IMG/VR virus record: IMGVR_UViG_3300023108_000130
Location: 1 to 25,647 of that record
DNA length: 25,647 nucleotides
Strand: one strand, 5' to 3'
Source of the DNA: a virus
Lineage: Duplodnaviria > Caudoviricetes
Each line of letters opens with the position of its first letter. Position 1 is the stretch's first letter. Shown piece by piece: positions 18,109 through 20,965 of the stretch. The notes under the pieces are model-generated. The model saw only the letters and a program-made list of their open reading frames with translations, searched no databases and was not told the origin of the DNA. The position numbers were made by a program, and so were the translations under genes.

Positions 18109-18657
18109 TTAGCTCAGTTCAAAAGTGGAGAATCTAAACGTTGCAGGGAACGTGATAAAGGTGTTATCACTCAACGTAGATTCCAAGGTCATATCCCCCA
18201 AGTTGGTTGGTAGACAATCTATATATTTAATTTTTCTTACCGTGTTGTTATGGCTTGATAGGATTGACAATGTGATATCCGAATACGACGGAGGTAGGTT
18301 TGCATTCCTCTGTGTTGGTGGACGCTCGTTAATCTCTACCAGTCTATTCATCCAGTTGTACATCTCGGTATATGAATTTAAGTTCTCATCCACAATAATC
18401 ATACAGGTTAGCTCTGAATAGATTAGTTTATCACCTGTAAACGGTACCGATCCGATTCTTTTGTATGGTACCTCAATTGGGTTAAGACTAAGATTAGGGT
18501 GCAGCACAGTCTGTGCAAAGAACTCTAGGTTAGGAAAGTTCTTACGGTCAATTGTAAGCCTAAACGACGTAGGCTGCAGATAGTTGATATTGTTTAACCC
18601 TGACACACTAGAGACGTTACTCACATCTACGGATATAGAGGGATTCAAAGTGGGCAT
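18109..18657 (-). CDS. gp3: Tail completion and sheath stabilizer
   Basis: NYLQPTSF, GDKLIY..L...IVDENL..Y.EMYNW and SDITL.IL.S.N motifs. Confidence 0.92.
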   Translation of the reverse strand: MPTLNPSISVDVSNVSSVSGLNNINYLQPTSFRLTIDRKNFPNLEFFAQTVLHPNLSLNPIEVPYKRIGSVPFTGDKLIYSELTCMIIVDENLNSYTEMYNWMNRLVEINERPPTQRNANLPPSYSDITLSILSSHNNTVRKIKYIDCLPTNLGDMTLESTLSDNTFITFPATFRFSTFELS

Positions 18658-18730: not shown

Positions 18731-18770
18731 CATTTAGGGGGTTTACAAATGATTCGAAATACATTATATT
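18731..18770 (+). promoter_or_regulatory. T4-type early promoter with A-tract UP element
   Basis: GGGGGTTTACA-17 nt-TATATT preceded by phased A-tracts. Leader AACAAAGGAGATACC is shared with the 7686 gene. Confidence 0.8.
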
Positions 18771-18795: not shown

Positions 18796-19002
18796 ATGCT
18801 ACTACCTAATGGATCAGCTATCAAACTAGACGTTATCGAAGCTTTCAACAAAGCGACTACTAATCCAGAAAACATCAACAATTCTGGTGGTCTAAATTGG
18901 AACTTCGTAGATGCTGATATCTGTATGGATCTTAACGGCATCTACTCTTTCGAATACCTAAACGAGTGCTTGGAAGTTTTGGTAGATAACTATTTTTCGT
19001 AA
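18796..19002 (+). CDS. Hypothetical early protein (NWNFVDAD motif)
   Basis: 68 aa, AAGGAG SD, directly after the early promoter. Confidence 0.82.
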   Translation: MLLPNGSAIKLDVIEAFNKATTNPENINNSGGLNWNFVDADICMDLNGIYSFEYLNECLEVLVDNYFS

Positions 19003-19012
19003 GGAGGAATAA

Positions 19013-19189
19013 ATGGAAGGACTCGTAATTTTCGTAGGATTTATAATTGGTGGTGCTTGTGCTACAATCGTTTCACAAATGCTAACTGACGTTAAATCTG
19101 TATCACAAGAACTTGGTATAGTAGCTTGGGGGTTTGCTGGCGGAATTGTTGGTGTTGTTCTAGCAGACTTACTACTACAAACTCTATAA
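19013..19189 (+). CDS. 58-aa two-TM Gly-rich membrane protein
   Basis: Manual translation MEGLVIFVGFIIGGACATIVSQMLTDVKSVSQELGIVAWGFAGGIVGVVLADLLLQTL. Strong AAGGAGG SD. Confidence 0.8.
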   Translation: MEGLVIFVGFIIGGACATIVSQMLTDVKSVSQELGIVAWGFAGGIVGVVLADLLLQTL

Positions 19190-19345
19190 CTTTTTTCCTC
19201 AGCGTCCTTGCTGAGAGAACCGGACTTAAACGCATAACACTAGTTAGTATAGAGTGGACCAGTTTCAGTCAAATTAGAGCGGCAACGTCAATAAGGCCGT
19301 GCGAGGAGACTGGAGATACTGGGGGCGTTGAGGAAAGGAGTTATA
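19185..19345 (+). ncRNA. Structured intergenic RNA / putative cis-regulatory switch
   Basis: 23-bp G-U-rich closing stem 19185-19207/19323-19345 covers the downstream SD, with inner stems and a competing local hairpin. Confidence 0.6.
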
Positions 19346-19347
19346 TT

Positions 19348-19557
19348 ATGGTTAGAACTGTACACTATGTAGGAATGGATCAAGCTACCTACCAACGGGC
19401 TCGTAGAGTTTGGGGTGGTCCTGCTTACTACCACAAATGGATGGACGACCGGGTCTGGACCGAGGTTGGTGATAGCGACGTTGTAGTCGTTGGTGATCCT
19501 AAGTATAGTCCATATGTTTGGGATGCTTCTGCTGTTCCAGCAGAATACACTGACTAA
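19348..19557 (+). CDS. 69-aa hypothetical protein
   Basis: AAGGAG SD before ATG 19348 (MVRTVHYVGMD...). The upstream extension in the ORF track is the structured RNA. Confidence 0.78.
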   Translation: MVRTVHYVGMDQATYQRARRVWGGPAYYHKWMDDRVWTEVGDSDVVVVGDPKYSPYVWDASAVPAEYTD

Positions 19558-19580
19558 AAAAAGGAGCGCCGAAGCGCTCC
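19556..19580 (-). terminator. Rho-independent terminator for gp23
   Basis: GGAGCGC-UUCG-GCGCUCC followed by U7 on the minus strand. Confidence 0.9.
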
Positions 19581-19598
19581 AGTCTGGGAGATAGAATT

Positions 19599-19624
19599 GG
19601 AGGGGTTGATTCCCCTCCTTTTTT
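19599..19624 (+). terminator. Rho-independent terminator for plus-strand cassette
   Basis: GGAGGGG-6 nt-CCCCTCC followed by T6. Confidence 0.88.
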
Positions 19625-19630
19625 AATATC

Positions 19631-20965
19631 TTATGTAAGGATGTTATCCACACGGAAGATACGGTAGTACTGGTTCTCGCGGTTAGTTGCAAGACCGTCA
19701 CGACCTGACATATTGCCTGTGTCAACGAATGGGTTTGATACCATGCCATAGCGAGTTTTGAACCCGATACGTGGCTGGAAGTCATTCTCGCCAACTGCAC
19801 GTACCATTGTTAGTGGTACATATGGGCAATAGAATACACCGGCGTCATATGGGTTAGTACCCTTATAGCCTACGTTGATGTAATCTGTTGTTGCATATGG
19901 GTCGATGTATACGCGGATACGACCGTTCATAACACCTGCGAATGTGTTACCTGTGTCATCTACGTTTAGGTTAGTTGAAAGAGCAGGAGCGTAATCCAAC
20001 ATGCCTGAAGCTGCTAGTGCACTTGCAACATCTGATGAACAGATGATGAAGTTACCTTTACCGCGGCGTGTTTCTTTTGCGATTACGTTCGCTTCACGAT
20101 CAAGCTGTACACCTAGACCTTTGAACTTCTCTGCTGACCAACGGCCGTCTGCGTCTGATGATAGATCGAAGATACCTTTTGTTGTTACGTTAGCTTGAAG
20201 TGCACCGATTTTAGCTTGTGCGTTAACTGTGCGAACAACTTCACGGTTGATCTCTGCCAAGATTTCTGTTGACAAGATGTTTGCCAATTCTGTCTCAGCG
20301 TCTAGACCGTGGATTGCTTTCAAGTCTTGCGCAAGCTCAAGTGTGTACTCTGCTTTCAATGCGCGTGACTTCGCTGTCACAGTTGCTTTTTCGATTGTGA
20401 AGCCCATTTCTGCAAATGACTCACCAGTGTTACCTAGTGCTTCCGCTTCTGCAGTATCATATGCGTCACCTGTTACAGGAACGTATGTGCCACCTGAGTC
20501 AGCGATTGAGCTGTCTGTATCGGTGTCTGTTGCACCTGCAAGACCTGATGGTCCGCGTGAGCCGTTACCTGTTGCAGATGAATCACCTGAATAGTTGACT
20601 TCTGCTTCGTTGAACAGTGCTTCTGTACCTTGTGCGATACCAGCTTTTTCTGTTTTGTATAGTGACTTCATTGCGAAGATCAAGCCTGTTGGGCCTGACA
20701 TCGGCTGAACGCCACAAATGTCGTATGCCATTAGGTTTGGCATAGAACGACGTACTAGTGAGATAAGAACTGGGTTCCAGTTAGCAGCAGCTGATGTGCT
20801 GTTTGCTGGTGTTTCCATCAGATCTTGTTGCTCTGCTAGTGCCTTTTCTGTGTTCTCCAGAACGGCTGCAGTAACTGCACGCTTGTGAGCGTCTTTGATT
20901 GTACCTGCAGATTCTTCGTTCAATACTGGAGACCATTTCTCTACGAGACGATCATAAGTTTCCAT
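19631..20965 (-). CDS. gp23: Major capsid protein
   Basis: PVLISLVRR, GVQPMSGPTGLIFAM, KSRALKAEYTLELAQDLKAIHGLDAE and YCPYVPL motifs. Confidence 0.99.
   Translation of the reverse strand: METYDRLVEKWSPVLNEESAGTIKDAHKRAVTAAVLENTEKALAEQQDLMETPANSTSAAANWNPVLISLVRRSMPNLMAYDICGVQPMSGPTGLIFAMKSLYKTEKAGIAQGTEALFNEAEVNYSGDSSATGNGSRGPSGLAGATDTDTDSSIADSGGTYVPVTGDAYDTAEAEALGNTGESFAEMGFTIEKATVTAKSRALKAEYTLELAQDLKAIHGLDAETELANILSTEILAEINREVVRTVNAQAKIGALQANVTTKGIFDLSSDADGRWSAEKFKGLGVQLDREANVIAKETRRGKGNFIICSSDVASALAASGMLDYAPALSTNLNVDDTGNTFAGVMNGRIRVYIDPYATTDYINVGYKGTNPYDAGVFYCPYVPLTMVRAVGENDFQPRIGFKTRYGMVSNPFVDTGNMSGRDGLATNRENQYYRIFRVDNILT

Follow-up and report, generated by a model that had tools for sequence, protein, structure and literature searches.

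A small-gene cassette and its RNA element

The window, by which we mean the whole stretch of DNA analysed here, comprises 25,647 nt (positions 1-25,647 of IMG/VR record IMGVR_UViG_3300023108_000130; Duplodnaviria, Caudoviricetes) of a T4-like phage whose capsid, portal, polymerase and other core genes lie on the minus strand. A cassette on the plus strand is bordered on one side by a tail-tube-family gene on the opposite strand (18109-18657) and on the other by the T4-like major capsid gene (19631-20965, minus strand), for which the nearest cultured capsids are those of phage C48C1 (66.7%) and Pelagibacter phage HTVC008M (61.1%). The cassette consists, in order, of a promoter-like site (18742-18770), a 68-aa open reading frame (ORF) without a family (18796-19002), a hydrophobic 58-aa ORF (19013-19189), the RNA element, a 69-aa ORF (19348-19557) and a terminator-like hairpin that ends it (19599-19618), all on the plus strand; another terminator-like hairpin (19563-19580) is oriented towards the minus-strand capsid gene. 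The promoter-like site, a candidate sigma-70-like early promoter with 10 of 12 consensus matches, is a consensus match only, three such sites having been found against 2.5 expected in shuffles. The 69-aa ORF encodes a conserved phage protein with a small alpha/beta fold and no known family.

The element is enclosed by a closing stem, P1, in which 19185-19207 pairs with 19323-19345 over 23 bp, four of them G-U pairs. This stem had been proposed in a preliminary description of the locus and is borne out by both sequence and folding; the copy belongs to the 21-bp length class of the family described below. The 181-nt segment folds at -59.2 kcal/mol (z -4.23), a value equalled by none of 200 shuffles. 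As also proposed, the upstream stop codon (TAA, 19187-19189), which belongs to the 58-aa ORF, lies in the 5' arm at the foot of the stem, and the Shine-Dalgarno sequence (SD) AAGGAG (19335-19340) is buried in the 3' arm, with an unpaired probability of at most 0.01 in the uncut fold. The interior stems named at that stage were found as well, but a side hairpin with a palindromic loop had been overlooked: the family alignment places P2, an asymmetric internal loop and the P3 hairpin at 19209-19234, with the palindromic tetramer CCGG, a predicted self-kissing site, at 19220-19223 in the P3 loop. There follow an optional arm, P4 (19238-19256), and the P5 arm (19259-19322), in which 19259-19270 pairs with 19308-19322 around a 3-nt bulge and which carries an internal loop and the P6 hairpin (19279-19300) with its conserved 12-nt loop (19284-19295).

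A local hairpin (19198-19203 with 19210-19215) had been put forward as a second state that frees the SD. The hairpin itself does form, being present in transcript prefixes that end at 19220-19330 and displaced from 19335 on, when the 3' arm appears, but it does not free the SD. Forcing it carries a cost of 8.8 kcal/mol and leaves the lower stem paired, SD included, because the partner of the SD (19190-19195) lies outside the hairpin. It is also unconserved: 65.6% of cells are paired in 30 aligned copies, and 179 of 500 shuffles score as high.

Open frames cross the element on both strands of the window (19126-19557, plus; 19288-19800, minus). These look incidental, and insertions in relatives would break them.

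A family of folded RNAs in uncultured marine T4-like phages

Pattern scans of viral and metagenome contigs yielded 140 distinct phage RNAs of about 88-224 nt; many of these come from related phage populations, and the counts given below are not of independent events. Two loci were left out, one in which the contig end cuts the element (L108) and one that is overlong (L059), and two broader stem patterns returned 0 and 1 loci, the first being mis-spaced and neither bounding the family. Among five large records, four hold exactly one copy and the fifth holds the related type B described below.

An alignment of 30 copies with a short P4, out of the 59 elements then in hand, is paired in 98.1% of its cells, as high as in none of 500 shuffles and compared with 37-43% in slid controls, and it contains double changes at 18 of 47 pairs, 11 of them in P1. 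P1 is 22 bp long in 117 of the 140 elements and 21 bp in the other 23, the length of about 22 bp expected of an RNase III helix, and it joins the P2-internal loop-P3 hairpin without a linker. The strand is marked by 329 G-U against 21 A-C juxtapositions in P1 and by a sense strand that folds more stably than the antisense in 140/140 elements. We agree with the preliminary description that the structure is under selection at the RNA level and has no Rfam match, and covariation among relatives is now seen.

The arms vary far more than the stem. P4 is absent in 34 elements, a hairpin in 64, a large domain in 41 and unclassified in one, and P6 is present in 117 and missing in 23. All five P6 pairs are invariant in the 30-copy alignment, and a double change occurs at one pair in 3 of 121 copies; support for P6 is thinner than for the other stems, the first search pattern having fixed it. 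Minimal forms of 87-104 nt retain P1, the side hairpin and a short third stem. Different interiors stand on the same kind of stem in L026, L046, L122 and the second copies in L093 and L097.

Several side observations concern these arms and interiors. The large P4 domain (L008, L053, L058, L073 and others) has, in 39 of the 140 elements, two loops that look like T-loops. The P6 loop (19284-19295) is the reverse complement of a sigma-70 -35 box and its flanks, like the early promoters of these phages, a resemblance that may be due to chance; an antisense sigma-70 promoter in P6 was rejected, the minus strand reading TTGACA or TTGACG but no -10 box following. Type B (L026:5-194, plus, and L046:2395-2487, plus, in G005; two true loci) has the same closing-stem foot and a GGCC-containing loop and also precedes a 69-aa gene, and its junction and third arm differ from those of the main type. 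Type C (L122, minus strand upstream of the element; L415-L417) is an RNA of 122 nt; its 23-bp stem foot is similar, its interior consists of several hairpins unrelated to those of the main type, and it has no Rfam match.

The P3 loop, which the second search pattern left unconstrained, holds a self-complementary tetramer at one register in all 132 stem-bearing elements (129 Watson-Crick, 3 wobble), compared with 2 of 12 stemless chance matches (15 matches less 3 truncated elements). The 140 elements have 21 distinct loops, all 21 palindromic at that register and at most 3 of the 21 at seven other registers, and seven tetramers occur: GGCC, GAUC, CCGG, GUAC, GCGC, UCGG and GGCU. An exception is the first element of L152, a degenerate tandem variant with only a weak, all-wobble tetramer. 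No covarying partner of the tetramer was found inside the element among the 140, and pairing of the P3 loop with the P6 loop in a pseudoknot was rejected, as the tetramer varies while P6 stays constant. Where tandem copies occur in one genome they bear different tetramers in both readable cases (L093 and L097). The adjacent loop positions covary as a palindrome. Neighbouring bases of a single chain are unable to pair with each other, and the straightforward explanation is that two copies pair. The wobble tetramers favour pairing of RNA over a DNA site, and judging from these patterns a dimer through the palindrome is quite likely.

Over the element, in the window as in relatives, no Rfam 15 family matches at gathering score, the best being a single match at E 0.97; near the element only tRNA and tmRNA reach the threshold. 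YrlA, one of the families compared, likewise gave no match at gathering score. To our knowledge, Rfam 15 includes models of riboswitches, ribozymes, 6S, manA, OLE, GOLLD, ROOL and pRNA. In 6S RNA an open central bubble separates the closing and terminal stems; the 5' side of the element is instead a covarying hairpin and its 3' linker is 0-4 nt. In cultured phages, neither the cassette nor a short family member has a DNA match, and model R1 detected no copy in phage C48C1, whose capsid (66.7%) makes it the nearest cultured relative. GTDB genomes gave four pattern matches, none of them a full element. We found no description of the RNA in the literature, including by a search with four short motifs, and no match in supplements 3-6 of Fremin et al. 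2023 (PMC10690425); part of the family may be among the 8,495 unnamed candidates of that study. Uncultured marine T4-like phages carry a folded non-coding RNA family that is a member of no family tested.

The palindromic loop invites comparison with RNAs that associate through loops. In OLE RNA, the L9.3 loop alternates among GGCC, GAUC and AGCU, and cryo-EM shows it in an intermolecular kiss, according to the sections of Kretsch et al. 2025 (PMC12286853) that deal with it; the family is alike in that the tetramer covaries between palindromes (GGCC, GAUC) at adjacent positions. GOLLD and ROOL, in the same source, share with the family that they are phage RNAs of unknown function and frequently lie close to tRNA islands, but many GOLLD RNAs exceed 800 nt, compared with about 90-220 nt here, and those RNAs make five or more contacts per chain, compared with one predicted contact. 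The family also differs from all three in its RNase III-type closing stem and in having no Rfam match. By analogy, the element would work like a small OLE-type self-kissing RNA set on an RNase III stem, with the dimer as a prediction. The phi29 prohead RNA resembles the family as a phage RNA with a junction and with loops that pair between molecules over four bases (PMC7357161, in its account of the loops). That RNA has two complementary, non-palindromic loops and a packaging role, whereas members of the family have a single palindromic loop and are situated in early cassettes of T4-like phages, which sets them apart from the pRNAs.

The closing stem and the genomic setting

We scored P1 with a table of E. 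coli in vivo RNase III pair counts (Table S4 of PMC6212723). The central register, with a cut after base pair 12, scores best in 80 of 87 distinct stems, a result matched in 2 of 1000 permutations of the order and direction of the pairs, so that with this in vivo table the pair preferences are found around one register; the stems are relatives, and the test amounts to roughly one independent family. At 17 of 22 positions, the pair most common in the phages is among the top two of the E. coli table. A core-only matrix gave a weaker signal (58 of 87 stems; 14 of 1000 permutations), and an older RNase III consensus, in the form quoted in PMC4357697, none that is significant (35 of 500). Two short variants pass the permutation test (1 and 5 of 1000), four related stems with other interiors are not significant (101-421 of 1000), and one invariant U-G pair occupies a position at which the E. 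coli table has U-G once in 85. In the window the predicted cuts fall behind 19198 and 19333, and the resulting 135-nt RNA (19199-19333) retains its fold in folding calculations. A double cut by RNase III at the stem centre is somewhat probable from these pair preferences, which follow rules from E. coli and are applied to a host that is probably alphaproteobacterial. The host is so taken on the strength of a two-piece alphaproteobacterial tmRNA that is phage-encoded in relatives with the element or a variant (L087; G003 80001-100000, L398; G005 100001-120000, L408). T7 R1.1 is, like P1, a two-turn helix between early genes with pair preferences in a central register, as treated in parts of PMC8708148 and PMC6212723. 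The stem of the family encloses a folded, covarying RNA of 45-180 nt, whereas RNase III sites of the R1.1 type enclose a small loop.

In four metatranscriptomes the window element is barely covered and relatives reach a depth of 3-4 in three of the four runs, counting contigs only; cassette parts without RNA cover are not informative on expression. Three low-depth contigs in two runs span the predicted 3' cut, and uncut RNA or DNA is therefore present. RNase P processes tRNAs, and copies that lie 3-5 nt before tRNAs could get their 3' end from tRNA processing. After the predicted cut, the SD would sit in a weak, A-U-rich duplex of -8.9 kcal/mol, compared with -8.2 kcal/mol for an anti-SD motif. 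In copies with the SD in the arm, the cut would loosen the SD helix and a ribosome at the upstream stop could open it; such cut-dependent loosening, by which the next gene would be tied to processing and to ribosomes that terminate there, would concern about a third of copies, as a side effect and not as a ligand switch.

The first feature downstream of the 140 elements is the 69-aa gene in 35, another ORF in 39, a tRNA in 12 (in each case at most 12 nt away), the next promoter in 8, a convergent terminator in 4 and a tandem copy in 2, with 3 truncated and 37 unclassified. By a looser recount, 21 of 133 elements have a promoter no more than 25 nt downstream, compared with a rate of 1.2% in shuffles, and 10 of 139 have one directly upstream. 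The SD is within the P1 3' arm in 48/140, and AGGAG adjoins the 5' edge of the element in 49/140. At L307 and L363 the element alone fills the gene slot between two early promoters. This is the setting of a gene-like RNA, not of a leader.

The 69-aa family is nevertheless the commonest downstream neighbour, the first downstream gene by profile in 39 of 130 cases, which is more than a fully independent RNA needs, and the 69-aa protein may therefore be a partner of the RNA. Of 162 loci of the 69-aa gene, 80 were kept, and in these model R1 detected 25 complete copies and 2 that are cut. Upstream DNA is sufficient at 75 gene loci: directly before the gene, 24 of them have this type, one has a related type and the remaining 50 have no element of either kind. 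The 91%-complete genome G003 has the RNA and no 69-aa gene in the 180 of 183 kb read. The protein has no match in Pfam, PHROG or Atlas and one weak, partial match in cultured phages. Its model (pLDDT 85) matches one uncharacterised phage structure, finds nothing in the PDB at E 0.001 and shows none of the known toxin or RNA-binding folds. A distant homologue, at an hhalign probability of 91, stands behind the element in 6 of 18 loci.

Two other features of T4-type phages can be compared with the element. Species 1 and 2 of T4 (rnaC and rnaD; NC_000866) are small stable RNAs of 119-139 nt in a tRNA cluster, but they lack a 22-bp closing stem and a fold like that of the element, model R1 gives no match there, and there is no homology of sequence or fold. 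The PeSL units of T4-type phages occur, in the parts of PMC2839356 and PMC4122927 that describe them, in similarly shuffled early-promoter cassettes with small unknown genes. A PeSL is a DNA unit of promoter plus terminator (PMC2839356, in the same description), whereas the element fills a gene slot between promoters and folds as a complex RNA; it does not contain a promoter and terminator, nor does it occur in many copies per genome.

A proposed self-dimerising phage RNA and competing explanations

Comparison of sequences establishes the fold and its strand, a closing stem of fixed length, the palindromic loop, arms (P4 and P5/P6) that can be swapped, movement among cassettes and the independence from any one neighbouring gene. 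Our best reading, which we hold with moderate confidence, is of an early phage RNA that is probably released by RNase III, probably dimerises with itself and would act in trans as a two-armed decoy; a small RNA released by RNase III had been one of the options in the preliminary description, and it fared better than the riboswitch or timer that headed them. The RNA would be transcribed early from host-type promoters by the host polymerase and excised from its transcript by host RNase III at the centre of P1. Once released, it would pair loop-to-loop with a second copy via the palindrome, and the dimer would present the variable arm in duplicate to decoy a host factor. That the RNA is expressed as a discrete molecule is very likely. 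The decoy step is the weakest part of the mechanism: a role in trans as a putative decoy is tentative, and for the P6 loop it is weakened by the 23 elements that lack P6.

Possibly, though we would not press it, the RNA is a modular scaffold, in which a constant release stem and a self-kissing hairpin would carry swapped arms (none, a hairpin, a large domain, P6 or unrelated cargo) as two-armed decoys in counter-defence or host takeover, the palindromes keeping paralogues apart in a set of dimeric RNAs. On this view, the palindromic loops of neighbouring motifs would point to a larger group of dimeric RNAs in the same phages. RNA homodimers that occur in nature and are supported by evolutionary evidence are rare, to go by the relevant sections of PMC12286853 and PMC7357161. 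Known phage examples are large and of unknown function, and minimal members here are about 90 nt. If the reading is correct, abundant marine T4-like phages treat RNA genes as swappable early cargo beside tRNAs and tmRNA. The family would offer a tractable model for why phages make self-pairing RNAs, with natural deletion and swap variants and sharp predictions as to cut sites, dimer and palindrome partner choice.

Much of the same evidence could be read in cis. If P1 were a processing site at which RNase III splits early polycistronic transcripts and so sets the stability or translation of the neighbours, the interior being a passenger or folding aid, then the RNase III fit of the stem, the unrelated interiors on the same stem foot (L026, L046, L122), the copies with the SD in the arm and the precedent of T7 R1.1 (PMC8708148, in the part on that site) would all be accounted for. 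A passenger would not, however, retain a covarying palindrome or a near-invariant P6, and elements alone between promoters or before terminators have nothing to process, which makes this reading rather unlikely. That the RNA is instead the partner of the 69-aa protein, antitoxin-like or in an RNA-protein particle, would fit the frequency of that gene as first neighbour, behind several loop types, and the distant homologue behind some copies; given the gene loci that lack the element directly upstream, the genome in which the RNA is present but the part read contains no such gene, and a protein model without a known toxin or RNA-binding fold, we regard it as quite improbable. As for the two-state riboswitch or folding timer governing the 69-aa gene, the buried SD of the window copy and the hairpin in short prefixes speak for it, but that hairpin is unconserved and leaves the SD paired. 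A riboswitch should also have a conserved alternative fold that exposes the SD and a constant place before functionally related genes, and neither was found: the SD is outside the arm in 92/140, two thirds of the gene loci (50/75) have no element directly upstream, and many copies stand before tRNAs, terminators or promoters with no gene to control. We consider this earlier proposal highly improbable.

Other explanations differ from the preferred one in what becomes of the RNA or the DNA. An uncut rod of long dsRNA, made of two kiss-joined P1-P2-P3 stacks, might titrate RNase III or a dsRNA-sensing defence protein; P1 and P2 could stack, having no linker between them, the 87-104-nt variants are little beyond P1, the kissing hairpin and a short third stem, and there are the contigs that span the predicted cut. 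Those contigs have a depth of 3-4 and are possibly DNA, and P1 resembles substrates that are cleaved, not only bound, so that a rod is unlikely. Conserved unpaired bases, optional peripheral arms and the position beside tRNAs would suit a ribozyme of a new class, active as a dimer and cutting itself or its neighbours, but this is very improbable in view of a most conserved domain that can be deleted with pairing kept and the absence of any Rfam ribozyme match even below threshold. Finally, patchy presence, varied neighbours inside early-promoter cassettes and AGGAG at the 5' edge could point to a mobile or recombination cassette at the DNA level, like PeSL, or to a MITE with terminal inverted repeats. 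The strand-specific G-U pairs of P1, arms that covary instead of staying identical, the single copy per genome in 4/4 positive large records and the lack of a promoter inside the element make such a cassette extremely improbable.

We also note three further motifs in these phages. A two-hairpin motif lies directly downstream of it at L169, L276, L280, L308, L314 and L343; its stems covary, and its internal loop contains GAUC in four forms and GGCC in one (6 distinct forms in 7 loci). A multi-hairpin motif beside tRNAs (L091, L093, L114, L120, L147, L152 and others) has a terminal hairpin loop with CUGCAG, occurs in 12 distinct forms in 23 loci and, where scanned, matches nothing in Rfam. A G-rich hairpin motif (L095, L169, L211), found in 3 distinct forms in 6 loci, lies directly upstream of the element.
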